Assembly: GCA_964491185.1 (NCBI GenBank)
Contig: CAZBFH010000001.1
Span: forward strand, 16,739-80,738
DNA length: 64,000 nucleotides
Reading direction: 5' to 3'
Source of the DNA: an uncultured Gammaproteobacteria bacterium
GTDB lineage: Bacteria > Patescibacteriota > Microgenomatia > Levybacterales > UBA12049
The position numbers and the translations under genes were made by a program. Below, one piece after another: positions 2,524-64,000 of the stretch (the first letter of the stretch is position 1; each line of letters opens with the position of its first letter). The notes under the pieces are model-generated. The model worked only from the letters and a program-made list of their open reading frames with translations, did no database searches and was not told the origin of the DNA.

Positions 2524-2535
2524 ATCTTAGTTAAC

Positions 2536-12003: not shown

Positions 12004-12027
12004 CAAGGCCTCCCTGCGAGGCTAAAG
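12004..12027. repeat. Second copy of the GC-rich motif GGCCT(CCC)TGCGAGGCTAAA with short hairpin potential, directly after the stop of the priming transferase
   Basis: caaggcctccctgcgaggctaaag aligns with 6921-6937 (ggccttgcgaggctaaa). The gcctc/gaggc pair can form a 5-bp stem. Confidence 0.45.
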
Positions 12028-32800: not shown

Positions 32801-33318
32801 CCTTTTACCAATGAGTACTGCTTATTTAATGTTTTATAAATTATAAGAAGTCCCAAGGGAAGTGCTGCAAATAAAGAAAACTTTGCTCTCTCCGCGATAA
32901 ACCATGCCTGTAAAATAAAGAAATTGTACATGTGGAAAATGCTGCCAAAAATTCTCATAATCCAAAATTCTTTTTGAGGGAAAAAATTTCGTATGAATAT
33001 ATACATAGAAATTCCCATCACAAAAAACCAGAAAACGAAAGCCGCTTTTTGTCCCATAGCTAACGAGCCTAAAATAACGCTAAAGAAAGTTTCCGGGAAC
33101 TGAATAACAAGAAAGCCTTTAAGTATCCCCCAGTCAGTTCCGAAGTTGTGAAGAAAGTTCCATGAGTAAAATAAATTTATTAAATGATTGAGATAATTAA
33201 GCCTGAATCCTGAATCATGGCCTATTATTGCTTCTCCGTTTCGAAGCCACCACAACGGAGTGAGACTTGCCAAAAAAACCAGTAAAATTTCCTTGTGTTT
33301 CTTAAAATTTTTAATCAT
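29878..33318 (-). CDS. Giant YfhO-like GT-C membrane protein (1146 aa) with expanded Asn/Ser/Lys-rich extracytoplasmic region and C-terminal TM anchor
   Basis: N-terminal GHDSGFRLNYLNHL and GGSHPPFGFIYIFLVEHIPGFAIFRS align with the 657-aa paralog. C-terminal FGNSFSTGWKAYV...FEIAIFYEPQKAFYIGIIISIVTLFVFVLILL. Confidence 0.55.
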   Translation of the reverse strand: MIKNFKKHKEILLVFLASLTPLWWLRNGEAIIGHDSGFRLNYLNHLINLFYSWNFLHNFGTDWGILKGFLVIQFPETFFSVILGSLAMGQKAAFVFWFFVMGISMYIFIRNFFPQKEFWIMRIFGSIFHMYNFFILQAWFIAERAKFSLFAALPLGLLIIYKTLNKQYSLVKGTILFSILSFFLNGGGSPPLYGSLILVYGLTFVFVTILNIRESGFKAIVHTFKTVALFALGFLSINAYFILPQIYTALNGYSGVLSSIGGISGILAWENAINKYASVLNLIRLQGIPDWYDNPSHSFSYHFINNPALIVLSFVPILLILFGLFFQNRKDMIKKQQDLIHLLFIVLFVGIVFAGGSHPPFGFIYIFLVEHIPGFAIFRSAIYKFGPAVWFSLILLSSFYLNLILNKFIRNKIMFNMVGFFVILILLVYHFPFFNSNFFQFNKPFVTKVSVPNYVYDSNTYLNSLDSSNRLILIPKLDPLYKVDSYGWGFWSLEPLSFLSLNNSVVSNDTVAPEIVNQIYKATEKNNSESFTKLLGRTGINKILVRNDIIYSNKSNRDNIIQSEKKELLENKEIKSDKIFGEWEILNVNSSYYLPLFYSPLKIISSNLELDSSLDLISNEKQERILSINEDVENAGKQGIINKISNQIYNKPECILCSDREYESMRINLLVPKANVLPGSIFYRFKISKENKLRSQVTDPAQKIDLNLAFSHARISEFEGIFYQSQVSSKKNELKLQVLSQEYKELIGNALKGSNQLEGLQNDKYKYKLAAYLYSQKELLETLYTDDNGLRSVVSSLTEFVNANISLIEKDVWRPRSLKEKNLVFNIEEKDSYELKNFDKLNITSMLLDEKEIELESPITLDKGEHRLRVNLNDESSEVLDQRLDEFSLANGHSIRLNLKDIGEYDKYLLTFEYKTSSEAIIETLTDHDMSVNSRFNVYENSDWELVSQELKNNSISPNGINLIVKNISKNKNNISIRNLKLTRKLSPKIYLFRNIKNEDQNIPNISFKKINPTHYVVNVTNARGPFFLNFGNSFSTGWKAYVFNRRDSEDEVKREYFNGEIKELKSEDRVFDRSLVPVFTTNPIPEVNHIKSNGFSNAWYVDGTGDFEIAIFYEPQKAFYIGIIISIVTLFVFVLILLKLKHGKN

Positions 33319-34972
33319 TTTTTTGACTACTAATACTTGCTACTCTTTCTCTTGTCTCATCTGTGATATCTATAACTTTTTGATTACTACTATCGATAAA
33401 AAAACCGTGAACCATTTCAGTTTCCAATTTTTTTTCTTTTATTTCGCTGATCATCTTATCAATATCTTGATAATAACCAAAACTAAGTGCGCCTTTTGCC
33501 TTGTATCCTTCAGCACCCAAATCCCAAAGATAATTTTCTTCTAAAAAGGCTTTCGGAATTTTTCCTGAATCAAAATACCATACCTCTAAAACATAACCTA
33601 AGCCATTTTGAAATGGATTAGTGATATTTCCATAATAGTTTTTATCGCTTATTACGTAAAAAATAGAATTATTATCTGGTGTAGGATAAATTTTCTTAAT
33701 TCCATTTAAAACTTTTACCCTCTCTGATCCAATTTTCTCCTGATAATTAATTTCATTTTTTATTACCTCTGCATGATGAAAGAAAAAGAATACCGTAATT
33801 GGAATTATCAAAAATTTCGCAAATCTATTTAAGCTAGATAAGTGATAAGCCACAAAACCAAATAATATAGAAGCTGTTACTGCTCCAACATAAAAATATC
33901 TTGATGAAAGATATGAACTGTCCCTATGAACAACCATGTAGGGAAGGAAGCTTAGAAAGAAAAAAGCAAGACAAAAAATAATATTTCTCTTAGTATTCCT
34001 ATCTTTTAACCTAAGAATAATTATTAGGATTATCCCCAAAATCGAAAAAGATCCAATTACTGAAACCATATCTGCAGCTAGACTTTGCGCAACTAAATCT
34101 CTTGCTGGAGAATCTATAAGAAATTTATACTGAGTTTTAATAATTTCAGGAGTCAAATTGTAGAGATCCGTAGGTGGAACAAAAATCTGAAACAGAGAAG
34201 TAAGCGGATATAAAACTACGTGAACAAGTGCAGACTTAATGGGACTTTGCCCTGCATTTACAAAGCCCACAGCATTATCGGTCCTGAAGAATAAACCAAG
34301 ATATCTAAAAAAACCAATGAGAGAGCCATAAATTAGCAAAGGTAAATGAACAATGAACGCTTCTCTTATTTTTATTTTTTCTTTAAAAGTAAAATAAGTT
34401 AAAGGATATAAAATAAATAAAAACAAAGCACTCTCCTTAAAAAGGAGAGAGATGAGTCCCAATAGATAACTTAGGTATAAAGTTTTTCTTTTCTCTGATT
34501 TTAAAAATTCTATGAAAAAAATTACCGAAAGAATTAGAAATGTTGTTGCGGGTAATCCACCCACAGCGGCAGCCCATGTCACAGCCTGGGAAGAAACGCT
34601 GGAAACTAAAAAGAACAATGATGCACTAAAAGAAATCCATGTTTTGTTAAAAAGTTTTTTCGCTAATATATAAACCAAAAGCGCGTTAATAACATGAATG
34701 GAAACAGCGAATGCGGCAATGGGTAAAATTTCAAATCTAAAATAATTGAGCAAAATTAAGTTAAGTGCGCGACTTAATGGTCTCCCACCCCCCAGCAAAA
34801 GCTGCTCCGGAGTTGTGTAATGAACAATATTACCGACTCCCTGAACTAAATTATGACCAATAGCTTGCCACTCATCTTGTTGATAAAAAGTTTTTGGGAG
34901 ATCCCAAAAGATAAATAAAGCCAATATTATTATTACCGGTAAATAAAAGTATTTTTTAATTATTTCGAGCAT
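33311..34972 (-). CDS. Polytopic GT-C-like membrane protein (PMT_2/GT39-like) with C-terminal soluble domain
   Basis: 553 aa. First extracytoplasmic loop YQQDEWQAIGHN with acidic DE motif, then about 11 TM helices. Confidence 0.45.
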   Translation of the reverse strand: MLEIIKKYFYLPVIIILALFIFWDLPKTFYQQDEWQAIGHNLVQGVGNIVHYTTPEQLLLGGGRPLSRALNLILLNYFRFEILPIAAFAVSIHVINALLVYILAKKLFNKTWISFSASLFFLVSSVSSQAVTWAAAVGGLPATTFLILSVIFFIEFLKSEKRKTLYLSYLLGLISLLFKESALFLFILYPLTYFTFKEKIKIREAFIVHLPLLIYGSLIGFFRYLGLFFRTDNAVGFVNAGQSPIKSALVHVVLYPLTSLFQIFVPPTDLYNLTPEIIKTQYKFLIDSPARDLVAQSLAADMVSVIGSFSILGIILIIILRLKDRNTKRNIIFCLAFFFLSFLPYMVVHRDSSYLSSRYFYVGAVTASILFGFVAYHLSSLNRFAKFLIIPITVFFFFHHAEVIKNEINYQEKIGSERVKVLNGIKKIYPTPDNNSIFYVISDKNYYGNITNPFQNGLGYVLEVWYFDSGKIPKAFLEENYLWDLGAEGYKAKGALSFGYYQDIDKMISEIKEKKLETEMVHGFFIDSSNQKVIDITDETRERVASISSQKND

Positions 34973-45184: not shown

Positions 45185-45877
45185 TTATTTACTTTGAAAA
45201 TAAAGCTGATTAAGCAGCGAGAGAATAAATTTGAGCCCAGTTATTGTTTTTAACTTTGACCTTCCCCATCCCCGTGCTCTCTCCCTACTTGGAATCTCCT
45301 TGATCTCATAACCCTTTTTAAGAACTGAAACTACCATCTCTTGTTCAACGCCAAAATCATCTGATTTTAATTTCAAACTCTGCGCAGTAGATTTCCTAAT
45401 CGCTCTAAAGCTGTATAGAATATCAGTAAGATTGGTCTTAAATTTTTGATTTACTAATGCAACAAGCACATCACAACCTGCAGCCCTAATTATTCCTATT
45501 AAATCGATGGTCACATCTGCACTTCCTCCTGTCCTTCTAGAGCCTATTACAAGATCTGCTTCATTTTTTAAAATGGGCTCTACGAAATCTGGGATATCAT
45601 TTTCGTCGTGTGATCCATCTGCATCAAAAAAAAGAATTATGCTTTTTTTTGCATTTTTAATTCCTATTTTTAAAGCATCTCCTCTTCCCTTTCTGTGATC
45701 CAAGAAGAATCTTGCGCCAAATTTTTCAGCTATCTCTCGCGTTCCGTCATTCGAATGACCATCAACTACTATTATGTCTGAGGAATATTTCTTAACTGAC
45801 TCGAGGATTTTCTTAATTCCTTCACCTTCGTTTTTACAGGCAATTACTATACTTACCTTGGATTTGTCGTAAGACAT
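45185..45877 (-). CDS. Soluble DPM-synthase/Ppm1-like GT2 (polyprenyl-phosphate sugar synthase candidate)
   Basis: 230 aa. VSIVIACKNEGEGIKKI..IIVVDGHSNDGTREIAE..FFDADGSH. Confidence 0.68.
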   Translation of the reverse strand: MSYDKSKVSIVIACKNEGEGIKKILESVKKYSSDIIVVDGHSNDGTREIAEKFGARFFLDHRKGRGDALKIGIKNAKKSIILFFDADGSHDENDIPDFVEPILKNEADLVIGSRRTGGSADVTIDLIGIIRAAGCDVLVALVNQKFKTNLTDILYSFRAIRKSTAQSLKLKSDDFGVEQEMVVSVLKKGYEIKEIPSRERARGWGRSKLKTITGLKFILSLLNQLYFQSK

Positions 45878-46603: not shown

Positions 46604-49096
46604 CTAAAGCTTTATGCGAGGCTTTAAAGTAACTGAATTTATTAAAATCTCAAACGGCCCGTCACCAAAGTCTAATGAGACATTTGTAAAATATTTTTTT
46701 AGATAATCACCACTTCCAGAATAAATTTCCCCTTCCGGTATTTCAGCATTTATTTTTTGATTTGCCAAACTAAATTTAAATGGAAAATATAAGTATTGAT
46801 AGTTCTGAACAGATCCTGTTTTATTCGTTTCCCACGTTAATTTTGCCCAAAAAGTATCAAGTCCGATTTTATGCAAATATTCTAGGTCTTGATGTCCATT
46901 CATAAAATCAAACATATTTACCATATCCTTGAATAATCTACTCCTATCACTATAAAGACCGACTATATCATTTGAAGAAGAATTGATAACTTCGAATTCA
47001 TCAATAGCTACAAAATCTCCTCCTGAAGTTGTATGAATCTCCATTTTTACGTATCTCGCAATAACAGGATCGAAGGAATCAATTTTTTCAAAAACAGTAG
47101 AATTTTTTACATCTATAACTTTTTTCCAATTCTTGTTGTCCCTAGAAACTGAAACTGAATATGTTGCAGGAATTCTCGTAGATTTCTCTAATGATCCCCA
47201 TGACACTGCAGAAATTTCCTTCTCCATTCCCAAATCCACCTGTATCCAAGGCACGAATGAGTCTGCAATCCACATGGATCTCTTACCCGGATTCCCATCA
47301 ATTAAATTTTTAGGCAAAACGTGAAAGAAGGGTTCTCCCTCTCTTTGAGACATTGTGTATGCTGTTTTTACTTTCACAGTTTTAAGATACTCATTTCTCT
47401 GAAGAGAGTAATTTGCTAATGCTCTAAACTTCTGGCTGTCTGGATTTCTTCCAATAACACTCAAAACCTCAAAAGCACTTAAATCCATATCCAAATTATA
47501 TGGCAAATCGACAACTGGACCCTGGAAATTAGAACTCTTGTAAACATTGTCAAATTTATTAATACTGATTTGATAATTTTTTTGGTTTAAGAGTAATTTT
47601 TTTGTTCTTTCAGTTTCATTAATTAATCCATTACTCAAACTGTGATCTAAAAAAACGACATCATTAATATTCACCTTGCCATTTTTTACTTTTGAAAGAA
47701 CCGCAATAAGCTGAGATTCAACTCTAAAAGGCTCATCTTCAAGATTTGAGTACTTTTTATCTTTAATCGTAAACCACTCCAAAAGATAATCTCCTAAAGC
47801 AGGAGCATGCGGATATAAATAAAAAGTAGTATTGTCAGAAAGTTTTGGAAAATATGAATTAAATTTTGTATAAAAACCTTTGGCTGGCTTGTAAAAATCT
47901 ACATACACTTCCCTTTCAATTTTCCATATTAAAATAAGATTAACAACCACAACTACTGCAACGAATAATTTTAATAGCTTTAAATTCGTAAAATAATTGA
48001 TTAAAATTATTCCCAAGAGAACACTGGTTCCTAAGAATGCAAAATACCTATAACGCATTGTGTTGTATTCATATGCTCGCGATAAAACCTCCGGAGTACT
48101 AGGAACAGCAAGTGAAACAAATACTGAGAACAGCCCTAACCAAATTAAGAAAAATAAAAATATTCTAAAATATGCTTTAGATTTTTTCAGTTTTAGCCAA
48201 ATCAATCCAAATAATCCAACGGTCATCCATCCAACAGCTGGAAAAAAGTATTTATTCATTGTTTCGTAATAAACAAACTTCGAACCTTGTTCCCTTAAAT
48301 AGTTCATAAGATCATATGGAATAATTTGCGGTGGAATTAGTTTTCCAATCGTGAGAAATGCAGCCTTAGCATACTCAAAATACAATCCATCACTCATAAA
48401 CCTCATTTGGAGCTTTACATTCCCATCAGCTGTATCTCCCGGAGTACCCCCATATAAGGATCTAATTAAAAAGAATCCCAGGATTATTAACGCGAATGGA
48501 ATTTGTCTTTTTACAATTCCCAAGATTTCTTTTTGTGAAAAAATATTTTTTGTAAAAATGACATCCATTGCAAAAATTAGAGGAATTAATACAATTCCTG
48601 TCTCTCTGACAAAAAATCCCAAAAAAGCTGAAAGAAGAGAAAGAACAAGCATTCTTTTATCATTTTTTTCTTTATATTTAAAAAATGCAGTTAAGCTTAT
48701 AAGTAAACAGATTAGGAGTAATGGATAATAAGAATTAAAGCTTCCCCAAGTGAGAACGTCGTTATAACAAGTGGTGACAGTGAAAATTAACGAGGAAATA
48801 AATGCAAGTTGTCTCTTTTTCGAAATCGTATATATAAATTTATAGAATAGAAGATAGGCAATTACTTGAACAATTAAAGCTGTTAAATACCATCCCCAAG
48901 GATTCCAACCAAATATTTTCCAGTCCAGAAAATATAAAAATCCATGACCTTTGATTAAATTTACTACCGTGTATGGAGCAATACCCGTTAACCACGTAGC
49001 TTCATACGCCTTAAAAAACCAAAAATTTAGTGTTGGGAACCAAGCTAGTACTCCAAGAAACGCAATAATTAAGTAATTCCTTTTATCTGGATTCAT
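46604..49096 (-). CDS. Polytopic membrane protein (GT-C-like) with C-terminal extracytoplasmic F5/8 type C (discoidin) carbohydrate-binding domain
   Basis: 830 aa. About 13 N-terminal TM helices. C-terminal NLIDGNPGKRSMWIADSFVPWIQVDLGMEKEISAVSWGS matches the discoidin signature (W..........WIQVDLG....I..V). Confidence 0.5.
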   Translation of the reverse strand: MNPDKRNYLIIAFLGVLAWFPTLNFWFFKAYEATWLTGIAPYTVVNLIKGHGFLYFLDWKIFGWNPWGWYLTALIVQVIAYLLFYKFIYTISKKRQLAFISSLIFTVTTCYNDVLTWGSFNSYYPLLLICLLISLTAFFKYKEKNDKRMLVLSLLSAFLGFFVRETGIVLIPLIFAMDVIFTKNIFSQKEILGIVKRQIPFALIILGFFLIRSLYGGTPGDTADGNVKLQMRFMSDGLYFEYAKAAFLTIGKLIPPQIIPYDLMNYLREQGSKFVYYETMNKYFFPAVGWMTVGLFGLIWLKLKKSKAYFRIFLFFLIWLGLFSVFVSLAVPSTPEVLSRAYEYNTMRYRYFAFLGTSVLLGIILINYFTNLKLLKLFVAVVVVVNLILIWKIEREVYVDFYKPAKGFYTKFNSYFPKLSDNTTFYLYPHAPALGDYLLEWFTIKDKKYSNLEDEPFRVESQLIAVLSKVKNGKVNINDVVFLDHSLSNGLINETERTKKLLLNQKNYQISINKFDNVYKSSNFQGPVVDLPYNLDMDLSAFEVLSVIGRNPDSQKFRALANYSLQRNEYLKTVKVKTAYTMSQREGEPFFHVLPKNLIDGNPGKRSMWIADSFVPWIQVDLGMEKEISAVSWGSLEKSTRIPATYSVSVSRDNKNWKKVIDVKNSTVFEKIDSFDPVIARYVKMEIHTTSGGDFVAIDEFEVINSSSNDIVGLYSDRSRLFKDMVNMFDFMNGHQDLEYLHKIGLDTFWAKLTWETNKTGSVQNYQYLYFPFKFSLANQKINAEIPEGEIYSGSGDYLKKYFTNVSLDFGDGPFEILINSVTLKPRIKL

Positions 49097-53349: not shown

Positions 53350-54360
53350 TTATTTTCTATTTAGCGATTTATTTACAACAGCCGCTCCATAAACTAATAG
53401 AAATGCAAAACAAACAAAAGGATGCAAAAACCATGCAATATCCCTGACTTTTAGATATCCCCTAACACTATCCATAAATGGCTTTATGAATGTTGCGGAA
53501 TAAATAACAAATTTAATAAGTCCTACGCGATCTGTCGAACTTACATATACCGCATATCTTCTTTTTTTCAAACTTTCAAAGTATTGTTTTTCCATTATTT
53601 TCCTGCGTCTTGCCATAAATCTTATAAACCAAAGTATTTTGGTTTTTTTGTAATGAATTATGTCATCCTTAACAAAGGCATACGTGTTATACCCCTTTTT
53701 GATTAAGTCATAATTTATATCAATATGGAAAAAATTCTCAGGTCCTTGAACAGTGTGTCTTAAGAGATCTCGTCTAATCATTGCGCCATTTGCCCCTAAT
53801 GTTGGAATTTTGGGTGGAGAAAACTTAACTAAAAAATATTTACCCATGTCTTGGCTTTCACCTAAAAGGTTATAGCTATCAAATGCCCAAGAAAGCCTTG
53901 CATCTTTTCCAAGATAGTATGGAACGGGATCAACTCCTCCAATTAATGCGAAGTATCTATCCAGGATATTATCATTTTTATTGTGATTAAAACGAAGAAC
54001 CTCAACTCCTGTTATCTCGCTGTTCTCAACTAGTGGCGCAACCATATTCTTAAGCCAATTTTTGTGCGGCAAGATATTATCGTGATCAATTAAAAGAATA
54101 ATTTCATTTTTTGCATGTGAAACAGCAACGCCTTTGTTGTACTCAGCTTCTTGTTTTTCCGGTGGAATTTTAAACAATTTATGAGGATAATTTTTTAAAA
54201 TCTCTAAAGTTTTGTCCTTGGATCCACCATCCGCAATTAATAACTCGATCTTTTCTTTGGGATAATCCTGAGAGAAAAGACTATCTAAAGAAAGCTTTAA
54301 GGAAAACTCAGAATTATATGTTGCCATTGCTACTGAAATGGATGGAAGTTTATTTATCAT
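53350..54360 (-). CDS. GT2 glycosyltransferase with C-terminal TM segment (paralog of 38033-39010)
   Basis: 336 aa. ISVAMATYNSEFSL..LLIADGGSKDKT. C-terminal RDIAWFLHPFVCFAFLLVYGAAVV. Confidence 0.72.
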   Translation of the reverse strand: MINKLPSISVAMATYNSEFSLKLSLDSLFSQDYPKEKIELLIADGGSKDKTLEILKNYPHKLFKIPPEKQEAEYNKGVAVSHAKNEIILLIDHDNILPHKNWLKNMVAPLVENSEITGVEVLRFNHNKNDNILDRYFALIGGVDPVPYYLGKDARLSWAFDSYNLLGESQDMGKYFLVKFSPPKIPTLGANGAMIRRDLLRHTVQGPENFFHIDINYDLIKKGYNTYAFVKDDIIHYKKTKILWFIRFMARRRKIMEKQYFESLKKRRYAVYVSSTDRVGLIKFVIYSATFIKPFMDSVRGYLKVRDIAWFLHPFVCFAFLLVYGAAVVNKSLNRK

Positions 54361-55469
54361 TGGTTTGCAAATTCTAAAAATTTATCAGTCGTATTTTCCC
54401 AAGTATGTTTTTTTCTCTCATCAATTGCTCCCTTTTGAAGTTTTAAGTACAAATCATCGCTAGTTAAAATTTTCTGGATGTTTTCAGAGAGATTTTCAGG
54501 GTTATTTTGACTACAAATTATTCCATTAATATTTTCCTTAACAATATCCCTAAGTCCAGGAACATTATAAACGACAGCTGGAGTCGCTCTAGCGCCCGCT
54601 TCGTGCACCGTAAGTCCCCATCCTTCTTTTACTGAGGGGGCGATCAATAAATGAGCTCTTGTTAAAAGTTCTTCCTTCTTTTCTTCACTCACAAAGTCTA
54701 AAAATTTAACATTTTCTAAAAGATCTAAATCCTTAACTAATTTTTTAAGCTCATTGACAAAATAATCTTCTCCGCGCCCTATTATCCAAAGTTTGATTTC
54801 TGGAATATTTTCTTTAATCAGTCCTACAGCCTTAATTGCATCTATTACTCCCTTTGTTCTAGAAAGCCGCGAAACAAAAATGATAGTTTTGTCTTTTTCT
54901 TTCCTAGGAAGTGCTGTTACCACATTTGAGTTTGATCCCATCGGAATAACTTTCACCTGTGATTTCGAAAATCCATTCTTTTCAATTTCTATTTTTGAAG
55001 ACTGCGAAATCGTAATAATAGGTATATTTTTATAAAAAATTGGGTAAATTTTTTCAATTATTTTTCCTAAAATATTGAAAGGGAATCCAACAGCAATATT
55101 CCAAAGATCTCCAGCTATTTCACAAATTAAGGCGACTTTTCTCTCCCGAACATAAAGAGTGGTAAAGAAAGGTATTCCATGCACTTCATCAATTACTAAA
55201 TCAACTTTCCCTTGAAAATCTTTTTTATAAAGCTTAAAGGCGAGGAAATGAACTGATTTAAAAAGTCTTCTCGCATCTGGATCACCAGTTCTAATTATCC
55301 TAACGCCATCTATCATCTCCTCTTCTTTTGCATCAGGAAACTTCGCGCTAATTTGCGTTACTGTATGTCCTTTCTTTACGAAACCAGCCGCCAACTCTTG
55401 TGTCAGTATTTCCGCTCCACCTGATAAAGGATTTTTAATATCTCTCCAGTTTAAAATTAATATTTTCAT
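54357..55469 (-). CDS. Glycosyltransferase family 4
   Basis: 370 aa. MKILILNWRDIKNPLSGGAEI N-terminus. C-terminal EGWGLTVHEAGARATPAVV. Confidence 0.8.
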   Translation of the reverse strand: MKILILNWRDIKNPLSGGAEILTQELAAGFVKKGHTVTQISAKFPDAKEEEMIDGVRIIRTGDPDARRLFKSVHFLAFKLYKKDFQGKVDLVIDEVHGIPFFTTLYVRERKVALICEIAGDLWNIAVGFPFNILGKIIEKIYPIFYKNIPIITISQSSKIEIEKNGFSKSQVKVIPMGSNSNVVTALPRKEKDKTIIFVSRLSRTKGVIDAIKAVGLIKENIPEIKLWIIGRGEDYFVNELKKLVKDLDLLENVKFLDFVSEEKKEELLTRAHLLIAPSVKEGWGLTVHEAGARATPAVVYNVPGLRDIVKENINGIICSQNNPENLSENIQKILTSDDLYLKLQKGAIDERKKHTWENTTDKFLEFANQ

Positions 55470-56800
55470 ATATCTGTATAAAGAATTATCGCCAGAAAAC
55501 TTAGCGAAAATATTCCAATTAAAAATAAGTAATTCAAAACAGGGATATAATTCTTAATTTTTTTATTTTGGAAAAATAGAGGCAACAAGCTCAAACTTGA
55601 TAAAAATAGATATGATCTAAAAACAATGAATGAAAATCCGAACATCTTAGTCCATGTTAGTTCTAAAAGTGAAAGTCCTATAAATAAAATAAACATAAAT
55701 GTAAGAAGAATATTTTTATTAAAATAATCTTTTATAAAAACAGCTAATGAAATTGCAAGAAATGGATAGAAGGGATACCTATACCATCCATGCCCTGGTT
55801 CGTTTGGAATTGCAAAAATAAATACCCCAAGATAAGCAAGGAGTCCTAGAACTGGAATTAAATTTTTTCTAAAATCTTTCAATAAAAGCAAGAAAAACGA
55901 TATCCACCCGAAATAAATCCATCCATCGATTAAATGTCTATCTGCCAAAAAGGGATCCTTAAAAATCGCGTACACGCTATTAAAAGTAAGATCGTATCTT
56001 TGAAGCTGCAACTTCCATAGACTAACGAAAAGATTCCAATCGTAATAATATCCATAAGCTAAGTAACCTAAGAAAAATAATAAGACAGTCGAGAATACAA
56101 TTAGACTTTCTTTATATTTTTTAAAATATATTAAAATTGAAATAACTGCTAAGCTCGCGGCTATCCATGGAATTTTTGAAATAATTAGTAATCCACAAAT
56201 AAGAGAAGCGATAATAATAAAAAACTTATTATTGGTTTTTATATACTTAACAGTTAGTAAAAGTGCCGTAAGAAAACCTGGAATAAAAAAATTCTCATTT
56301 TGAACAAGCCTTGAACCAATTGCAACAGTTGGAATTACTGCATAAATTAAACTTGTTAAAAGGGCAGTTTCTCGATCATAAACTTCTTTTACTAAAAGAA
56401 AAAGCACTCCAATCGAAATCACACCAAGAATGATTGCAAGTGGACGAATCCTCCCAACGTCAATGTCATACATGTTATCTGCTCCATTTAAAATAGCGAA
56501 TGATCCAGCAACAATTCCAAAAAAAGGTGGATGCTCTAGATAAGGATTAACTATCCAGAACGCGGCTCCTTTATAAATAAGGTGATCTCTCTCAGAATTA
56601 ATATATTGTGGATGAGATGACCAAGATTTCGGTACTCCTTCTTGAAAAAGATTTACTCCAAGCCATGTCCAAGCAAACTCATCCATTGTTGCGCCAAATC
56701 TAGGTGCAGTTTGATAATGATGGAACCTTAAAACAAATCCTATTAGAAGAATGGGAATTAAAATAATGAGAGTTTTACTCTTAAAAAGACTTACAATCAT
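55466..56800 (-). CDS. GT-C glycosyltransferase of the PMT/ArnT (GT39/GT83) type
   Basis: 444 aa. First loop MDEFAWTW...EGVPKSW with the DE motif, then YLEHPPFFGIVAGS (cf. the eKPPL motif of ArnT/PMT). About 11 TM helices. Confidence 0.55.
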   Translation of the reverse strand: MIVSLFKSKTLIILIPILLIGFVLRFHHYQTAPRFGATMDEFAWTWLGVNLFQEGVPKSWSSHPQYINSERDHLIYKGAAFWIVNPYLEHPPFFGIVAGSFAILNGADNMYDIDVGRIRPLAIILGVISIGVLFLLVKEVYDRETALLTSLIYAVIPTVAIGSRLVQNENFFIPGFLTALLLTVKYIKTNNKFFIIIASLICGLLIISKIPWIAASLAVISILIYFKKYKESLIVFSTVLLFFLGYLAYGYYYDWNLFVSLWKLQLQRYDLTFNSVYAIFKDPFLADRHLIDGWIYFGWISFFLLLLKDFRKNLIPVLGLLAYLGVFIFAIPNEPGHGWYRYPFYPFLAISLAVFIKDYFNKNILLTFMFILFIGLSLLELTWTKMFGFSFIVFRSYLFLSSLSLLPLFFQNKKIKNYIPVLNYLFLIGIFSLSFLAIILYTDI

Positions 56801-57528
56801 TTGTAATAGTTAAGGATCCTTATTCTATAAAAAACTGCCAAAGTATCAACCATCGTCCAAAAAGATATTTTCCAAAAATTCTTACTAGTTACACTCCCTT
56901 GCTTAAAGCTTAATTTTATAGGCGCTTCAATAATTCTTGTATATCCAAGTAACCTAGCTACAGCTAAAACTTCTACATCAAAAGCAAAAGCTTTTACGAT
57001 TATTTTTGGGAAAACCTCCTTAGCCGTTTTTTTTCTAAAAAACTTAAGCCCAACCTGCGTATCTCTAACATTTAGCCTAAAAAGTATTTTAATAAGCGTC
57101 CTATATCCCCAAGACAATATTTTCCGACTCAATGGATACTCTATTATCGAGTCTGGGTGTAGCTTACTACCAATTACAATATCAGCTCGCGACAATTCCA
57201 TCATATTAAGCATTATTGATATTTCAGAAGGATTTAGATCCATTCCTGCATCAATAAATCCAATAATATCCCCTCTCGCTTTCTCTACTCCAAGCTTTAT
57301 CGCAAACCCTTTTCCCTTATTTTCTCCATATCCAATTAGAATTACTTTATTATTTTTAATATCTTTTAATTTTTCATAAGTTTTATCTAAGAATCCATCA
57401 ACCACAACTATGATCTCGTATTCTGTGGATAATGAACCCAAAACAAAATCAAGACTTTTAATATCTTCAATTATAGTTTTTTCTTGTTTGTAAGCAGGAA
57501 CTATTAAAGAAATGAAATTAGCGGCCAT
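56797..57528 (-). CDS. Soluble DPM-synthase/GtrB-like GT2 (polyprenyl-phosphate sugar synthase candidate)
   Basis: 243 aa. ISLIVPAYKQEKTI, IIVVVDGFLDKT, FIDAGMD. 4-nt overlap with the downstream PMT-like gene. Confidence 0.68.
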   Translation of the reverse strand: MAANFISLIVPAYKQEKTIIEDIKSLDFVLGSLSTEYEIIVVVDGFLDKTYEKLKDIKNNKVILIGYGENKGKGFAIKLGVEKARGDIIGFIDAGMDLNPSEISIMLNMMELSRADIVIGSKLHPDSIIEYPLSRKILSWGYRTLIKILFRLNVRDTQVGLKFFRKKTAKEVFPKIIVKAFAFDVEVLAVARLLGYTRIIEAPIKLSFKQGSVTSKNFWKISFWTMVDTLAVFYRIRILNYYK

Positions 57529-57533
57529 AGTAA

Positions 57534-58817
57534 TTATTTGTAAGAATATTTGAACTCATTTATCTTTAAATAATACATGACAAGTGAAATCATAAGCAAC
57601 AATGATGAAAAAATAGATACGTATATAATTTGACCAAAATTAGAATGATATATCCACATTAAGATTATCTGAAGTGCTGCGAATAAAAGAGCAATCATAA
57701 ATACTCTTGTTTTTTTAATCGAAAGAAAAAAGCTGACAAAAACATTGTTAACGCTATAAATTGTTAAAAATATTCCAAAAAGACCAAGGTATGGAGCGAC
57801 TGATAAATACTCCCCTCCTCCTAAGAAAATTGAGACAGTGAAATTGGAAAAAAGAAAATAAAATCCAGTCATTAATATTGATGGGATAAGAACTAAAGAT
57901 AATGCGATATAGAAAAGATTATTATAATTTTCTTTATTAGTATGACGTTTAACGATTAACGGAAACATAGCTATTGGAATTGGTCCCGTAAAGTAAAAAA
58001 TAACTTTGCCAATTAGAGATAGGCCCCCGTAAAACCCGGCATCCTGTGAATTAAAAAAATGTTTAACAACTAACACATCTGTTGATATGAAGGAGGATAA
58101 AGAAAAAATGGCAATCGTCGTTGGTATAGCATAAGATAGAATGTCGTTCCTCCCAATATTGATTTTCTTACTTGCATTTAAAATCACAGATTTTAACGGT
58201 ATAAAACCAAAAACAAAATCAAGAAGAGAAAAAATTATTACAGCAGCTAATGCACCATAAACCTTAAAACCCATCATAATAAGAATTATTCCGCTTATCA
58301 GCTTTCCAACTCCCGCTATTAGATACAAAGACCCGAGTAACTTAAACTTAAGCATACTTTGGATAAATGCCATATTTAAAGTAGCTAAGTAAAAAATTGA
58401 TATAGAAAATCCAACCATAATTACAAGACCAATATCGTTAATCTTTAGGAATGAAAGTATTAAAGGTGAAAGCGTGATAATTCCAATATTTAAAATCACG
58501 CTGAACAATAGTAAATATTTGAAAGATTTTATATAAAACGCACCTGCTCTTTGAGTTTCATTTTTTGAAAAAAACTGGGCCGCGTATCTAACAATAATCG
58601 ATGATAATGAGCTTGCAGGAATTATCACAAGAGTAATTAAAGACATTAAGCTTGCAAATGTTCCATAATCTGAATATGTCAAATTCCTTGCGAAGTAAAC
58701 ATTTAAAATAAATGCTAGAAAACTTGATGCAGTAGTTCCAACTAAAACAAAAAAGCTCCCAGATATTAAATCATGCTTTATGCTATTTATTATGATTTTC
58801 CTTATTTTTTCGATCAT
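57534..58817 (-). CDS. Wzx-type polysaccharide/oligosaccharide flippase (MOP superfamily)
   Basis: 427 aa with 12-14 TM helices. N-terminus ...SGSFFVLVGTTASSFLAFILNVYFARNLTYSDYGTFASLMSL is typical of Polysacc_synt (PF01943/PF13440) proteins. Confidence 0.68.
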   Translation of the reverse strand: MIEKIRKIIINSIKHDLISGSFFVLVGTTASSFLAFILNVYFARNLTYSDYGTFASLMSLITLVIIPASSLSSIIVRYAAQFFSKNETQRAGAFYIKSFKYLLLFSVILNIGIITLSPLILSFLKINDIGLVIMVGFSISIFYLATLNMAFIQSMLKFKLLGSLYLIAGVGKLISGIILIMMGFKVYGALAAVIIFSLLDFVFGFIPLKSVILNASKKINIGRNDILSYAIPTTIAIFSLSSFISTDVLVVKHFFNSQDAGFYGGLSLIGKVIFYFTGPIPIAMFPLIVKRHTNKENYNNLFYIALSLVLIPSILMTGFYFLFSNFTVSIFLGGGEYLSVAPYLGLFGIFLTIYSVNNVFVSFFLSIKKTRVFMIALLFAALQIILMWIYHSNFGQIIYVSIFSSLLLMISLVMYYLKINEFKYSYK

Positions 58818-59875
58818 TTTTTATTGAAAATTTCAACATATGCATCATATGTTTCTTTAGCAGTCTTTTCCCATGAGAATTTTTTTACATTTTCAAATCC
58901 TTGCTTTATTAAATTCTCTCTAAATTTTTCATCTTCAATAACCCCACTTAACCCTGCTTTAATTGAATCAGTGCTTAATGGATCAACATAACACGCCCCA
59001 TCTCCTGCCACCTCCGCAAGTGACCCTAATTTTGAAGTTATAACAGGACAACCCGACTGCATCGCTTCAAGAATTGGCAAACCAAAGCCCTCATAAAGTG
59101 AAGGCATCACGAGAACAGTTGCAACGTTATATATCGCTACCAAATCCTCATCGTCAACAAAACCCAAAGAAATAACTTTATTATTTTTTGACGCAAGTTC
59201 TTGTGCTTTCTTTAAATCCTTATTCCAGAGATTATCAGCATCATATTGAGTATTTTTAAACGCCTGTCCAACGATCACCAATGAATAATTAGTATTATTT
59301 ATTGCCTCAATAAGTCTTGGAAGATTTTTATTTGGAGTAACATCTCCTACATATAGAGCAAACTTATCAGGTAAACTAAATTTTCTAACCACTTCTTTCT
59401 TTTTTTCTTCAGTAATTTGCCTAAAGTGCTTGGCTGCCGCAAGATAAATTACTTTAATTCCCGATGTTTCGTAACCAACGATTTTCGCTATATCTTTTTT
59501 TGATGATTCTGAATCTGTAATAATTAGATCTGAATTTTTAAGTATTTTTTTTTGTATTTGCCATTTAAATGCCCCTTTTATACCAACTGGGAAATCATTC
59601 CTGAAAACTAACGGGGTGAGATCATGAACCGTTATTATTGTTTTTACAGTCTTTATGATGGGAAGTGTTATAAAAAATGGTTCAAAATATGGGTAATGGA
59701 TTAGATCAGTTGAGTGAGAGATTTTATCACCTCTCTTAATCAAAACGAAATCCTCTGGGCCATATTTTTCTATTAAGGCCTCCTTGAGATTATTTAAGTA
59801 AAATCCAGTACCTCTTACTCTATGCTGAAGATAATGGCCGGAAGTTATGGGAGAAACATCAATTGCTACCTTCAT
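58814..59875 (-). CDS. Glycosyltransferase family 4
   Basis: 353 aa. EGFGLPILEAMQSGCPVITSKLGSLAEVAGDGACYVDP. Confidence 0.8.
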   Translation of the reverse strand: MKVAIDVSPITSGHYLQHRVRGTGFYLNNLKEALIEKYGPEDFVLIKRGDKISHSTDLIHYPYFEPFFITLPIIKTVKTIITVHDLTPLVFRNDFPVGIKGAFKWQIQKKILKNSDLIITDSESSKKDIAKIVGYETSGIKVIYLAAAKHFRQITEEKKKEVVRKFSLPDKFALYVGDVTPNKNLPRLIEAINNTNYSLVIVGQAFKNTQYDADNLWNKDLKKAQELASKNNKVISLGFVDDEDLVAIYNVATVLVMPSLYEGFGLPILEAMQSGCPVITSKLGSLAEVAGDGACYVDPLSTDSIKAGLSGVIEDEKFRENLIKQGFENVKKFSWEKTAKETYDAYVEIFNKK

Positions 59876-61524
59876 TTCTTAATTTTAATGTATTTCTCCC
59901 TCATAAACAAACAAAATAACGAAAACGTTGAAAATATTGTAATAATCAAAGAAATGATTTGAAGCTTGGTACTTTTTAGAATTATCTCCAGACTATGCTG
60001 ACCCCTAGGTACACTTACTTCAAATATCCCATCCTTGGTAGTTTTTATAGGTATCTGATTACCATCAAGCTTTACAGTCCAACCTGGAAAATACGCGATA
60101 TTAATTCTAATTTTACCCTCAGTTTCACCTGAAATAAAAACATTTTCACCTGTGACATTACTAGAGATAGTTTTTATCTTGATTTCTTTTGATGAAATTC
60201 TTTCATTTACTGGCTCAAGCTTTGCATTGAAATTAAGTGTATTGAAAACATTCCCTGGACTGTTTGTTCCATTGGTAAAATTATCCCTAGAAAGATAATA
60301 CTCATCGTCTCTTAAGTGATGATAAGGAGCCTTAATGTAATTAAACGAAAATCCAATTGAGAGCGCTATTAACACTAAAGAAAGAATGATTCGAATCTTT
60401 TCTTTTTTTATCAAAGTTTCTGAAACAATAAAACCGGCAAGAAATGATGATGCCAAGATAAGTACACTTAAGAGTCTCCATGGAAATTGAATATAAGACA
60501 CTAAGGGAACATTTTGCCAAATAAATTTAGAAAAGGGCGTTATCAGAAAAAGTGTAAAGATGAATATAAACAAGAATAAACCTACGATTCCAATTCTTTT
60601 CTTAAATATAAAAATTGCCGAACATATTAGTATTACCAAAAGATTTACGATTCCTATTTGAAATGACATTTGATCAGGCATATTAACTCCTGAAAACCCA
60701 TATCCCCATGATGAATAAATTAGTTTATAAATTACGGGGAAATGCTCGGTCGGATCGAAAATCTGAAGTCCTCTTACATATTTTGTTTCAAGAATGGCAG
60801 GTAGCCAAAAAATTGCCGAAAGTCCAATTCCAAAAAAAGAAATAAAAATCGAAGAGCTAAATTCTTTTAATTTAATTATGATATTTTGTTTTTTTGAAAA
60901 AGATGAAAAAAATGCATACACTAAAAAGAGGGAGAAGAAAACAACCGCAAGGATATTATGAGCTAAAACTATTAACGCTAGGATAAATGATGTTAATACA
61001 AAATATTTTATCTTCTTAGAATCCATATATGATTGATAACCCCACAATAATCCTGGGGCTAGTCCCAAGCTCCATACTTCTCCAACTGAACCTCTCACAT
61101 AAATATCAAGCAAATGATACGGTGAGTAGGCGTAGAAAACGGAACTCACTAAAGCACCCCAGTTTCCCCAAAACCTTCTGGACCATAGGTAAGTAAAAAT
61201 TGAACCAATAATAGTCGCAAAAATCATATTCAACTTTAATGAATCAATAAAACTAAATCCTACTAGATGCGTGAATGATGCTACATAGTTTGGAAGAGGA
61301 TAAACATAATTGAATAGTGGTATTCCATATCCATTATTAAAATCTTCAGCCCATCTTGGATAAAGAGTTCCTTCATTTATGGATTTGAAGAATTGCTGAA
61401 ATCTTAGAACATGAAACTCTCCATCATGTGTTGGTGGAAGACCAGGTTTTAAAAGAGAAATTACAGATAAAAACGAGATGGCGACTCCTGCAATCAATAA
61501 TTTATAATTTTTAGCTTTCTTCAT
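59872..61524 (-). CDS. YfhO-like polytopic GT-C glycosyltransferase with C-terminal TM anchor
   Basis: 550 aa. N-terminal loop PTHDGEFHVLRFQQF...LYPRWAEDFNNGYGIPLFNYVYPLP. C-terminal IAYFPGWTVKLDGNQIP...LEIILKS followed by a TM helix. Paralog of 27587 and 29878. Confidence 0.5.
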   Translation of the reverse strand: MKKAKNYKLLIAGVAISFLSVISLLKPGLPPTHDGEFHVLRFQQFFKSINEGTLYPRWAEDFNNGYGIPLFNYVYPLPNYVASFTHLVGFSFIDSLKLNMIFATIIGSIFTYLWSRRFWGNWGALVSSVFYAYSPYHLLDIYVRGSVGEVWSLGLAPGLLWGYQSYMDSKKIKYFVLTSFILALIVLAHNILAVVFFSLFLVYAFFSSFSKKQNIIIKLKEFSSSIFISFFGIGLSAIFWLPAILETKYVRGLQIFDPTEHFPVIYKLIYSSWGYGFSGVNMPDQMSFQIGIVNLLVILICSAIFIFKKRIGIVGLFLFIFIFTLFLITPFSKFIWQNVPLVSYIQFPWRLLSVLILASSFLAGFIVSETLIKKEKIRIILSLVLIALSIGFSFNYIKAPYHHLRDDEYYLSRDNFTNGTNSPGNVFNTLNFNAKLEPVNERISSKEIKIKTISSNVTGENVFISGETEGKIRINIAYFPGWTVKLDGNQIPIKTTKDGIFEVSVPRGQHSLEIILKSTKLQIISLIITIFSTFSLFCLFMREKYIKIKK

Positions 61525-62636
61525 TTGAAGACATTTTTCAATGCGGCCTTAATATCATTTAAGGAGAAAAATAGTAATCCAATTATCGGAGTATATGTGA
61601 CGATTATTTTAATTAAAGGAGTTATTCCAAAATGCGTTCCTAAATACATATAAGGAATATATCTAAGCATTAATCCGAATGACAAAGTAAATCCTAATAT
61701 TTTTAATTTTTTATTTTCTGAAAGTGATATAAAAGCTAAAAACCAAATTCCATACCAAGGGTAAATTTCCTCTCTGATTGGAGACAAAAGAAATATCACA
61801 AACATTAACGCGAAGGAATAAGTGTAAATCTTTTCCCAATCGATTTTTCTTTTTTTTATTCTGAGAAACAAATAATAAATGAAAACCGGTACAAGAAGAA
61901 TAGTGGCATATTTTATTAAAATCGAAAATACAAGAAATATAATAGCTAGAATAATCTTTTCTTTTTTTAAAAGATAAAATGAAAGAAATGCAAAAAATAT
62001 CATCGAAACGTCATTATGCCCCGAAACAAATGTTTCGATTAAAACTAGGGGACTTAAAGCAAAATATGCGACATTTCCAATATTCTTAGTGAATTTGTAA
62101 ATCAGATAAATGATCCCGAAATAGAAAATCATTACAAAGAGCTTAAAGTTAAACAACGTCAGAAGGAAATTATTAAATCCGAGAAAATGTGGAAGACTTG
62201 TAATCCCAATCCAAGATGGACCATAAAGAGCGACTTTATTTGCTGCATGCGTGAATCCTAAGTATGGGTCTCCTAAGAACTCAATTGGCATAATTATAAA
62301 GGGATTCTCGTGATATAAATATAAAATTTTAGCAGTAAAAATATAATTAAATATGTCATATGAAAGAATTGCCGGATAAGAAAAAAATAAGAGAACAGCA
62401 GAAAGAACAACAACATTCATTAATATTTTTTCTGTAATCCTCCTGAGAAAGAAAAAATAAAATAGGAAAAATAAAGAAATAAAAATTAAGTAAATAAGAG
62501 CAACCAATTCTCTATTAAGAGTTGCAAAGGCTGTATAAAGACTCGTCATGTAAGTCAGATTTTGATCTACAAATAAATATGAGAAAAATGTGAACGCCAG
62601 AAGAAATAAACCATAACCTAAAATCAAAAGCTTCAT
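61521..62636 (-). CDS. Polytopic membrane protein (GT87/DUF2029-like glycosyltransferase candidate)
   Basis: 371 aa with about 11 TM helices. SGHNDVSMIFFAFLSFYLL segment. No soluble domain. Confidence 0.4.
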   Translation of the reverse strand: MKLLILGYGLFLLAFTFFSYLFVDQNLTYMTSLYTAFATLNRELVALIYLIFISLFFLFYFFFLRRITEKILMNVVVLSAVLLFFSYPAILSYDIFNYIFTAKILYLYHENPFIIMPIEFLGDPYLGFTHAANKVALYGPSWIGITSLPHFLGFNNFLLTLFNFKLFVMIFYFGIIYLIYKFTKNIGNVAYFALSPLVLIETFVSGHNDVSMIFFAFLSFYLLKKEKIILAIIFLVFSILIKYATILLVPVFIYYLFLRIKKRKIDWEKIYTYSFALMFVIFLLSPIREEIYPWYGIWFLAFISLSENKKLKILGFTLSFGLMLRYIPYMYLGTHFGITPLIKIIVTYTPIIGLLFFSLNDIKAALKNVFK

Positions 62637-63157
62637 AAAACACTATTTCTAATATTTATTGAATCATCAATTAATCCCTTTAAATTTAAATTTGTTGAAG
62701 GAGATTTTTCCGGACTCCAATTAACCTCTTCTGGCAATTGACCCGCCAAACCCCCTAGAAGATCCATATGTCTCCGTGAGGCTTCCCTAAGCAACTCTTC
62801 TCTTTCAGAAATGTCTTTTCCATTTCTCTGAGCGTTTTCAAGATTAGGATAAATTTCCATAAAATATTCATCTGATTTCTTAAGAGCTTTTGTAGCTAAT
62901 AAATATTGCTTATAATCAAACAACGTCTTAGCCTCGACTAAATAATGGTCAGATTCTTTAAGATTGTAATCAAATTTACCAAAATCACCGAAATAAATAT
63001 ATTTACTTATTTTTGAAACAATAAGTCTTGGTTTATATAAAATATTTCCTGGCATATATGAAGGGTAAGGGAGAACATAAGTAGATTCAGCGCTAACATT
63101 TCCCGGCAAAAATAGGAATAGACTAAAACAGAAAATTAGGAAAATCTTCTTAGACAT
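62633..63157 (-). CDS. Secreted hypothetical protein (cleavable signal peptide)
   Basis: 174 aa. MSKKIFLIFCFSLFLFLPGNVSA-ESTY signal peptide with an AXA-like cleavage site. Confidence 0.45.
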   Translation of the reverse strand: MSKKIFLIFCFSLFLFLPGNVSAESTYVLPYPSYMPGNILYKPRLIVSKISKYIYFGDFGKFDYNLKESDHYLVEAKTLFDYKQYLLATKALKKSDEYFMEIYPNLENAQRNGKDISEREELLREASRRHMDLLGGLAGQLPEEVNWSPEKSPSTNLNLKGLIDDSINIRNSVL

Positions 63158-64000
63158 TTTTTGTATGCCACTGCCAGGCGGTTTTTACAATTGTTTCTAT
63201 GTCTGAATACTTTGGTGCAAATCCCAAGCCCTCTCTGGCCTTAGTGTTATCTGCATATATCATTGCAGGATCACCAGATCTTCTGGGCTTTATGTCTACT
63301 GGAAAATCTACTCCACTTACTTTTTTTATTTCTTCAAGAATTTGAAGATTTGAATATCCTATTCCTGCGCCTAAATTAAAATAATCACTCTCCCCTTTTT
63401 CTACAAGTAAATTCAGAGCTTGAAGATGCGCAATTGCTAAATCCTCTACGTGTATGTAGTCTCTCACGCAAGTTCCATCTTTTGTTTCGTAATCATTCCC
63501 AAACAAAGAGAAGGAAGCATTAGATATGGCTGCTTGAATGGCAATTGGAATAATGTGAGTTTCTGGATCATGATTTTCACCAATTGAACCATCCAGAGCA
63601 GCTCCAGCCGCATTAAAATATCGTAAATTAACATGCTTTATTCCATATACCTTCTCATACCAATCTAGAATATTTTCAAACATCAGCTTTGAGTCACCAT
63701 AAACGCTTTCTGGTTTTTTTGACTCATTCTCTGATACAGGTAAATTCTTAGGGGTTCCGTAAATTGCACATGTTGAGGAGAAAATTATCTTCTTAATCCC
63801 TTTTTCTTTCATAAATTCAAGGAGATTCAAACCACCTTGAATATTATTGTTGAAATATTTATAAGGATCTTTCATCGATTCACCTGCAAGAGCAGATGCA
63901 GCAAAATGTATTACCCCGTCAAATTCATATTTACCAAGATTCTCAAATAGAAAGTCTTTATTCTTAAGATCTCCGATAATTAAATTTCCACTAACCGCTT
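63150..64000 (-). CDS. galE: UDP-glucose 4-epimerase GalE (5' end lies beyond the window)
   Basis: ORF track begins at M63875, but own translation of 63876-64000 continues in frame without stops (…VSGNLIIGDLKNKDFLFENLGKYEFDGVIHFAASALAGES-MKDPYKYF). This matches the GalE vIHFAA..VGES region. Downstream: NLRYFNAAGA..DGTCVRDYIHVEDLAIAH. Confidence 0.8.
   Translation of the reverse strand, partial: AVSGNLIIGDLKNKDFLFENLGKYEFDGVIHFAASALAGESMKDPYKYFNNNIQGGLNLLEFMKEKGIKKIIFSSTCAIYGTPKNLPVSENESKKPESVYGDSKLMFENILDWYEKVYGIKHVNLRYFNAAGAALDGSIGENHDPETHIIPIAIQAAISNASFSLFGNDYETKDGTCVRDYIHVEDLAIAHLQALNLLVEKGESDYFNLGAGIGYSNLQILEEIKKVSGVDFPVDIKPRRSGDPAMIYADNTKAREGLGFAPKYSDIETIVKTAWQWHTKNV

Follow-up and report, generated by a model that had tools for sequence, protein, structure and literature searches.

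A candidate transmembrane glycosylation core with a Wzx-type transporter, a DPM-synthase-like GT2 and a minimal GT-C protein in Microgenomates bacteria

RESULTS

A conserved five-gene core

We analysed a 64,000-nt stretch of contig CAZBFH010000001.1 (GenBank assembly GCA_964491185.1, positions 16,739 to 80,738 of the forward strand; 'the window' hereafter means the whole of this stretch) from a bacterium of the candidate phyla radiation (CPR, or Patescibacteria). Three neighbouring genes of the window encode a MOP-superfamily transporter (MOP), a soluble glycosyltransferase of family 2 (GT2) and a small membrane glycosyltransferase of the GT-C fold (GT-C); these genes almost certainly act jointly to attach a sugar outside the cell membrane, and they belong to a conserved unit of five genes, GT4 > MOP > GT2 > GT4 > GT-C, which is extended more loosely upstream and followed by a downstream region of variable content. 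As to the mechanism, we give a roughly even chance to a route in which the GT2 charges polyprenyl phosphate, the MOP protein translocates the lipid-linked sugar and the GT-C protein transfers it outside.

An earlier note, made from the letters of the window alone, had described the three open reading frames (ORFs) as a three-gene module. Its coordinates match ours exactly, all three ORFs lying on the minus strand, and the family classes that it named (Wzx-like MOP, dolichol-phosphate mannose (DPM)-like GT2 and GT-C) are borne out. Homologues of each gene number in the hundreds to thousands, with E-values reaching 1e-100 or below, so the three ORFs are real genes and not chance ORFs. The genes are translationally coupled: the stop codon of the GT2 gene and the start codon of the GT-C gene share the tetranucleotide ATGA (56797-56800), the 4-nt overlap reported in the note, and the same start/stop overlap is found at the junctions of the upstream GT4 with MOP and of GT-C with the downstream GT4, giving three such junctions in total. 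The gap between the MOP and GT2 genes is 5 nt.

A genome scan with one genome per species produced 76 loci, all of Microgenomates type (Levy-, Gottesman-, Davies-, Shapiro- and Woesebacteria); their GT-C proteins are 39-82% identical to that of the window. Gene order was counted in the 60 loci whose upstream sequence extends for 3.5 kb or more: 54 have MOP > GT2 > GT-C, one has GT2 > MOP > GT-C, two have GT2 > GT-C only, and in three neither gene lies upstream. The three parts that a multi-component system for transmembrane glycosylation is expected to have are co-encoded and co-conserved, on one strand in 55 of the 60 informative loci; the note had itself proposed this look at co-occurrence in related genomes.

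As a self-contained unit the triad did not survive the comparison, the two GT4 genes being conserved to the same degree as the other three. With presence counts corrected for the sequence coverage of each locus, the 353-aa GT4 was found in 56 of 59 loci, MOP in 54 of 60, GT2 in 62 of 65 and the 370-aa GT4 in 62 of 69 (90-95%), compared with 24 of 60 for the downstream GT2-336 and 19 of 56 for the downstream DegT gene (34-40%). It follows from these figures that the conserved unit is the five-gene core. The upstream extension consists of genes for a YfhO-like protein (44/55), a 371-aa membrane protein (36/54), a DUF5667 protein (30/54) and a GalE-like protein (31/54). A relative that is 55% identical, and for which Pfam calls were precomputed, also has this core, placed in another large cluster.

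A single gene of ~370 aa separates GT2 from GT-C in 36 of the 55 complete loci, and 40 of the 45 genes intervening at this place are orthologues of the 370-aa GT4 of the window. The slot of this GT4 has shifted: most species have it between GT2 and GT-C, the window and its closest relatives (loci L001-L007) after GT-C. ATGA coupling has re-formed at the new junctions (the window compared with L009-L073).

The flank survey covered 31 families recurring in at least three related loci. Among the recurrent families listed there was no phosphoglycosyltransferase (PGT), ABC exporter, GtrA or Wzy, and there were five further PMT_2 families. A second, AglJ-like GT2 stands directly upstream of MOP in 13 of 59 informative loci, where MOP is flanked by two such synthases. 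Given that no PGT is among the flank families listed, the AglJ-like and the focal GT2s are the only recurrent enzymes near MOP that would charge polyprenyl phosphate.

Dozens of the related metagenome-assembled genome records (L001-L072) are titled 'uncultured Gammaproteobacteria bacterium', and single ones Deltaproteobacteria or Eisenbacteria. These labels are probably placeholders or mis-assigned; gene content and nearest named relatives point to Levy- and Gottesmanbacteria.

The GT2 protein

The GT2 matches PF00535 with 65.7 bits over residues 7-173, covering the entire model. Its closest solved relative by sequence is the DPM synthase (DPMS) of Pyrococcus (PfDPMS, 5mlz; E 7e-13, query residues 6-209); GtrB (5ekp) comes next and ArnC (9hwj) is also among the top matches, in agreement with the note, which had placed the protein nearest to polyprenyl-phosphate sugar synthases. 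A family profile improves the PfDPMS match to E 2.6e-17, and DPMS alone aligns past the generic N-terminal nucleotide-binding half of the protein. The NCBIfam matches to PpgS (4-201/226) and AglJ (E 1e-7) are full-length but weak and sub-threshold; generic GT2 families, e.g. PgaC, match as well.

In PfDPMS the metal is held by D91 and Q93 of the motif 89-DADLQH-94, mannose is contacted by D89, and R117, R131 and S135 place the phosphate of dolichyl phosphate (Dol-P); the D91A variant has residual activity left (PMC5526996). We read the residue correspondence from HMMER alignments. The metal and sugar positions D89, D91 and Q93 map to D93, G95 and D97 of the GT2, the phosphate positions R117, R131 and S135 to K122, R135 and S139, and the further positions F177, K178 and R202 to F183, D184 and K209. 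Across 20 aligned homologues, G95, D97, K122, R135 and S139 do not vary, and the pattern P..RK[IVL][ILV]S is present in 101 of 120. In two other short GT2s of the window the same columns are occupied by canonical DADLQ and DADGS.

The note had named absence of the DPM-type catalytic residues as an observation that would count against its reading. What we find is half of it: the canonical DAD is lost, with its metal-binding second Asp replaced by Gly family-wide, but the acceptor-phosphate residues are kept. Because the phosphate-positioning residues of PfDPMS map to invariant K122, R135 and S139, the acceptor side of the GT2 is, as judged from the alignments, DPM-like; we infer a polyprenyl phosphate as the lipid acceptor. 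The metal site is systematically rearranged. Asp97 is a plausible substitute metal ligand. Decay to a pseudo-enzyme was considered as an explanation of the variant motif and rejected, the motif being invariant in all 120 homologues and the GT2 54% identical across species.

No transmembrane (TM) helix is predicted in the GT2. Residues 132-153, the helix with R135 and S139, have the highest hydrophobic moment of the protein (0.56 versus a mean of 0.24 +/- 0.12), a value consistent with a membrane-interface helix.

The GT-C protein

The GT-C protein matches PF13231 (PMT_2) with 47.9 bits against a gathering score of 26.1. PF02366 (PMT) gave no match in it and is carried, as a precomputed call, by a minority of the homologues; no MIR domain was found in the protein. 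As sequence searches of PDB chains matched nothing, a fold search was used for GT-C and for MOP. It returned the GT-C fold for the former, with the monosaccharide transferases Pmt4, ALG12 and ArnT as nearest folds. With PF13231 above its gathering score and this fold, the 444-aa protein is a glycosyltransferase and not a member of a non-glycosyltransferase membrane family, the outcome that would have spoken against the note.

Residues D40-E41, within GATxDE[FY]AWTW, are located 14 residues past TM1 (helix 9-26), where the first loop-helix begins; E89-H90-P91-P92, within PYLEHPP, follow 50 residues further along. The two motifs, which are the DE-loop and eKPPL-like motifs previously pointed out, are invariant in the family (present in 116/120 and 119/120 homologues, respectively). 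An acidic DE or DxD in the first extracytoplasmic loop is a hallmark of GT-C enzymes; the loop-1 DE of S. coelicolor Pmt is so described, and D113 and H159 of that protein, 46 residues apart, are both essential (PMC8698208). The search for the catalytic Asp-Glu of PMT/ArnT enzymes thus has a positive result in loop 1, with an equivalence to Pmt D113/E114 that is positional only.

The MOP protein

The PF01943 (Polysacc_synt) match of the MOP protein, 22.6 bits, is below the gathering score of 28.2 and spans positions 3-272 of the 274 in the model; most homologues carry precomputed PF01943 or PF13440. A single-sequence search of PDB chains gave no match. The AlphaFold2 model (mean predicted local distance difference test, pLDDT, 85.6) was aligned by Foldseek to MATE, MurJ (6nc9) and WzxE (9g9p) with TM-scores of 0.70-0.78 over ~430 columns, and the predicted structure points to a 12-TM MOP fold. 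No other MOP was detectable in the window.

Scores of the MOP family hidden Markov model are bimodal (~250-300 and 500-650), a sign either of two MOP subtypes or of more rapid evolution. In two relatives, L001 (7904-9264) and L014 (6751-8020), the gene is broken up into two ORFs that adjoin or overlap, by either a frameshift (pseudogene) or an assembly error.

Proposed mechanism

In the route that we favour, the soluble GT2 would dock via amphipathic helices at the membrane's cytoplasmic face and move a sugar from a nucleotide sugar onto polyprenyl phosphate. The MOP/Wzx-type protein would carry the lipid-linked sugar to the outer face, where the minimal GT-C with its loop-1 Asp-Glu would pass the sugar to an acceptor in the extracytoplasmic envelope. 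As for the two GT4s, their most likely task is cytoplasmic: making the acceptor or lengthening the lipid-linked unit. The link from GT2 to GT-C is the strongest step of this route and the cargo of MOP the weakest: the cargo could be the lipid-P-sugar of the GT2, a GT4-extended form of the same, or an ordinary undecaprenyl-diphosphate (Und-PP)-linked oligosaccharide. Chemistry resembling protein O-mannosylation, at which the earlier note had hinted, finds no backing here: neither mannose nor a protein acceptor is specifically indicated. Assuming mannose is disfavoured, since the mannose contact K178 of DPMS is replaced by Asp (D184) and the metal site is altered.

Several observations weigh against this route. 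Some concern the GT2: of the three candidate polyprenyl-P-sugar synthases of the window it is the most divergent and the least DPM-like; the canonical DAD is missing, with D93-A-G95-M-D97 (DAGMD) standing for DADLQ and D-x-G-x-D/E present in 120 of 120 homologues; and its equivalog scores are 47.1 bits for PpgS, 37.7 for ArnC and 31.4 for AglJ versus cut-offs of 370, 529 and 325 bits. Others concern MOP: no other flippase is visible for the large array, in which a WbaP/PglC-type PGT is also encoded, and MOP is the least conserved gene of the core, with a median identity of 31% versus 41-54% for the other core genes (51-54% across species for GT-C and GT2). Such low conservation would be unexpected for a cargo consisting of one fixed lipid-P-monosaccharide. 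The two conserved GT4s are superfluous in a simple three-component model. A small membrane partner similar to GacJ of streptococci (see 'Discussion' section) was not found: the junctions of the core leave no room for it, and there is none among the flank families listed. Finally, single-sequence and profile searches of PDB chains with GT-C were empty, and they gave no residue-level alignment to any solved GT-C.

Alternative readings

Possible, if on balance doubtful, is that MOP is an ordinary Wzx which flips an Und-PP-oligosaccharide, initiated by the WbaP/PglC-type enzyme and built by GT2s and GT4s, as the repeat-unit flippase of the whole array; the GT2/GT-C pair would then merely decorate the product, and the lipid-P-sugar would cross the membrane by another route. 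The array does contain a Bac_transf PGT, many cytoplasmic glycosyltransferases and a 1090-aa protein with a weak Wzy_C match, and it has a single MOP and lacks an ABC exporter. MOP, flanked by two GT4s, is the fastest-evolving core gene, as is typical of a Wzx that follows a variable cargo. Yet the PGT of the window is 43 kb distant, its homologue was found within 10 kb of the core in none of 75 loci, and no PGT belongs to the recurrent flank families listed. MOP, moreover, remains with GT2 and GT-C while downstream glycosyltransferase and tailoring genes vary, and in the 13 loci mentioned above it is situated between two DPM-like GT2s.

We consider unlikely an AglJ-like monophosphate pathway, in which the GT2 primes polyprenyl phosphate, the GT4s extend it, MOP flips the oligosaccharide and GT-C transfers it en bloc. 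The five genes that such a pathway requires are exactly the five 90-95% conserved, translationally coupled genes, a PGT is missing from the conserved neighbourhood, and the GT2 matches AglJ full-length, if weakly. In Haloferax this scheme operates on Dol-P, the Wzx-like flippase being Agl15 (PMC3871713). On the other side, the 444-aa GT-C has neither the C-terminal extracytoplasmic domain nor the motifs of an oligosaccharyltransferase (OST), its nearest folds are those of monosaccharide transferases, and the GT4s could equally make a separate acceptor. We know of no description of a bacterial monophosphate-linked oligosaccharide pathway of AglJ-like type, which also counts against this possibility. 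The full claim, that the five-gene core is a bacterial polyprenyl-monophosphate-linked oligosaccharide pathway with a D-x-G-x-D GT2 as the priming enzyme, GT4s that extend, a MOP that flips and a domain-less GT-C that transfers en bloc, is in our view quite improbable; if true, CPR bacteria would share a conserved, PGT-independent assembly line for glycans in the style of archaea and eukaryotes.

Very unlikely is that the focal GT2 is an ordinary cytoplasmic glycan-extending enzyme and that GT-C takes its donor from another synthase, e.g. the ArnC-like or the AglJ-like one of Table 1: the lost DAD motif, the PpgS, ArnC and AglJ scores (stated as at least 10-fold under the cut-offs), the matches to generic families (PgaC) and the presence of two far more canonical synthases in the same window would fit, but DPMS is alone in aligning beyond the nucleotide-binding half, the acceptor-phosphate residues are invariant, GT2 and GT-C are tightly coupled (overlapping by ATGA in the window; next to each other or separated by one gene in 62 of 65 loci), and the canonical synthases are not conserved near GT-C.

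The glycan array of the window

The core is embedded in a glycan array that runs almost unbroken on the minus strand from ~12 kb to past 64 kb (12022-64000), with a GC content of ~0.32; no tRNA and no Rfam features were found in the window. In addition to the genes in Table 1, the array holds rml, aminotransferase and methyltransferase genes and numerous genes for GT2s and GT4s. It encodes eight or more GT-C-like membrane proteins, a density unusually high for a small-genome bacterium. Homologues of the ArnC/PgfS-like synthase candidate were seen near the core in two loci, and those of the AglJ/PpgS-like candidate in 13 of 59 informative loci.

Table 1. Core genes, common neighbours and other glycan-related genes of the window
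Feature	Coordinates	Strand	Remarks
WbaP/PglC-type initiating phosphoglycosyltransferase (Bac_transf PGT)	12022-12687	-	PF02397 212.9 bits; TIGR03025 E 3e-76
GT-C-like protein (PMT_2)	18020-19459	-	within glycan array
ArnC/PgfS-like synthase candidate	26052-27032		two C-terminal TM helices; E 4.5e-50; DADLQ
GT-C-like protein (weak AftD)	27587-29560	-	within glycan array
GT-C-like protein (AftD GT-C + DUF5667)	29878-33318	-	within glycan array
GT-C-like protein (weak PMT_2)	33311-34972	-	within glycan array
Soluble AglJ/PpgS-like synthase candidate	45185-45877		E 6e-38; DADGS
GT-C-like protein	46604-49096	-	within glycan array
GT4, core member	54357-55469	-	370 aa; PF00534 138.8 bits; ATGA overlap with GT-C stop
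Minimal GT-C fold glycosyltransferase (PMT_2), without large extracytoplasmic domain	55466-56800	-	444 aa; within glycan array
Soluble GT2, DPM1/GtrB/ArnC/PpgS-like candidate polyprenyl-phosphate sugar synthase, D-x-G-x-D variant metal motif	56797-57528	-	243 aa
MOP-superfamily, Wzx/PST-type 12-TM transporter, candidate lipid-linked sugar flippase	57534-58817	-	427 aa
GT4, core member, directly upstream of MOP	58814-59875	-	353 aa; PF00534 112.5 bits; ATGA overlap with MOP start
YfhO/PTPS_related-type GT-C-like membrane protein, common upstream neighbour	59872-61524	-	550 aa; PF10131 50.3 bits, PF09586 45.6 bits; within glycan array
Polytopic membrane protein (GT-C-like), common upstream neighbour	61521-62636	-	371 aa; no Pfam match; ~8 TM segments; within glycan array
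DUF5667-like secreted/anchored protein, common upstream neighbour	62633-63157	-	174 aa; weak PF18915 match
GalE-like NAD-dependent sugar epimerase, extends past window end	63150-64000	-	frame open to base 64000

The GT-C-like protein at 46604-49096 (830 aa, PMT_2) carries a C-terminal F5/8 type C domain (discoidin, galactose-binding-like), which may be a built-in acceptor- or carbohydrate-binding module. The ORF at 19481-22753 (1090 aa, TTG start) has ~20 predicted TM segments and matches Wzy_C weakly (E 0.005); no homologue was found near the core in other genomes, and the protein could be a polymerase or ligase for the variable part of the array. A 190-aa ORF (25246-25818) with only the N-terminal Glyco_transf_4 half lies directly upstream of a full 377-aa GT4 (24111-25244) and is perhaps what is left of a GT4, or part of a split gene. 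The GalE-like ORF was considered as a truncated pseudogene and this was rejected, the reading frame being open to the end of the window.

No GtrA (PF04138) match was found among the scanned ORFs of the window, including the unassigned membrane ORFs that were scanned at a lenient threshold; the window likewise has no ABC exporter and no clear Wzy, the sole hint of the latter being the weak Wzy_C match. The 114-aa, 4-TM ORF at 29547-29891 was tried as a GtrA- or GacJ-like protein and rejected, as it gave only a weak YfhO-fragment match.

At its downstream boundary (9950-11914 and 1204-5374) the array is followed by genes for a DUF4012 protein, RecO and a class II aminoacyl-tRNA synthetase and by a MraW/PBP transpeptidase/Mur ligase block. 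Presence of this division and cell-wall block indicates that the organism makes peptidoglycan.

DISCUSSION

A Wzx/MOP flippase combined with a lipid-sugar synthase and a GT-C transferase already has published precedents, and the CPR core is an uncharacterised member of this class. A literature search of limited coverage found no papers on the module in CPR.

Among the nearest known systems is the one for the GlcNAc (N-acetylglucosamine) side chain of the group A carbohydrate in S. pyogenes, which comprises GacI (soluble GT-A), GacJ, GacK (Wzx-type) and GacL (GT-C) (Rush et al. 2017, bioRxiv 10.1101/180810); a 2021 review depicts this arrangement as a second architecture of such systems (Rismondo et al. 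2021, PMC8035078). In both cases a soluble GT-A without TM helices makes, or would make, the sugar-charged polyprenyl phosphate (C55-P-sugar in Gac), a Wzx-type MOP protein is the proposed flippase, a small GT-C acts outside, and the genes all lie together in a larger cluster for cell-wall glycans. Unlike Gac, the CPR core has no GacJ-like small membrane activator, contains two integral GT4s and shows D-x-G-x-D in place of DXD. The likeness is one of architecture.

In Haloferax volcanii the Wzx-like proteins AglR and Agl15 are implicated in flipping Dol-P-mannose and Dol-P-tetrasaccharide, respectively (PMC3871713). The AglD/AglR/AglS and AglJ...Agl15 systems share with the CPR core a DPM-like GT2 to charge a polyprenyl monophosphate, a Wzx-like protein to flip and a membrane transferase to finish outside. 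They are, however, archaeal, use a dolichol carrier and serve protein N-glycosylation with the OST AglB, whereas the CPR GT-C is without an OST domain and the AglJ match of the GT2 is weak.

The GtrA/GtrB/Gtr* and CsbB/GtcA/YfhO systems follow the same succession of lipid-P-sugar synthase, flippase and GT-C, and a YfhO-type protein is the common upstream neighbour of the CPR core. In these systems the flippase is the 4-TM GtrA and not a 12-TM MOP protein, and GtrB/CsbB have two C-terminal TM helices that the CPR GT2 lacks. The proposal of the earlier note that a Wzx-type flippase stands in the GtrA position is not new, with GacK, AglR/Agl15 and MATE examples published, and the cargo may be an ordinary Und-PP-oligosaccharide. 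Compared with actinobacterial Ppm1/Pmt (PMC8698208), the GT-C of the window has no PF02366 and is shorter (444 aa), and the GT2 has D184 for DPMS K178 and no DAD. The Citrobacter pentofuranose system, made up of a synthase dependent on phosphoribosyl pyrophosphate (PRPP), a MATE flippase and a GT136 GT-C (PMC11127046), also has a MOP-superfamily transporter in the flippase slot beside a GT-C; its donor synthase is a phosphoribosyltransferase instead of a GT2, and its GT-C belongs to another family.

The general mechanism is established elsewhere, so the value of the present finding is in cataloguing and in CPR biology and not in a new principle. The family-wide D-x-G-x-D motif provides a natural experiment on how DPMS-type enzymes bind metal, and the core is a concrete five-gene target for heterologous reconstitution.

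CPR bacteria are uncultivated and host-dependent, and their envelope chemistry is essentially unknown. The core is among the best-conserved sets of neighbouring glycan genes in Microgenomates. In view of the 51-54% identity of GT2 and GT-C and of a gene order kept in >90% of loci, it probably makes a lineage-wide feature of the envelope, which the variable downstream genes would diversify.

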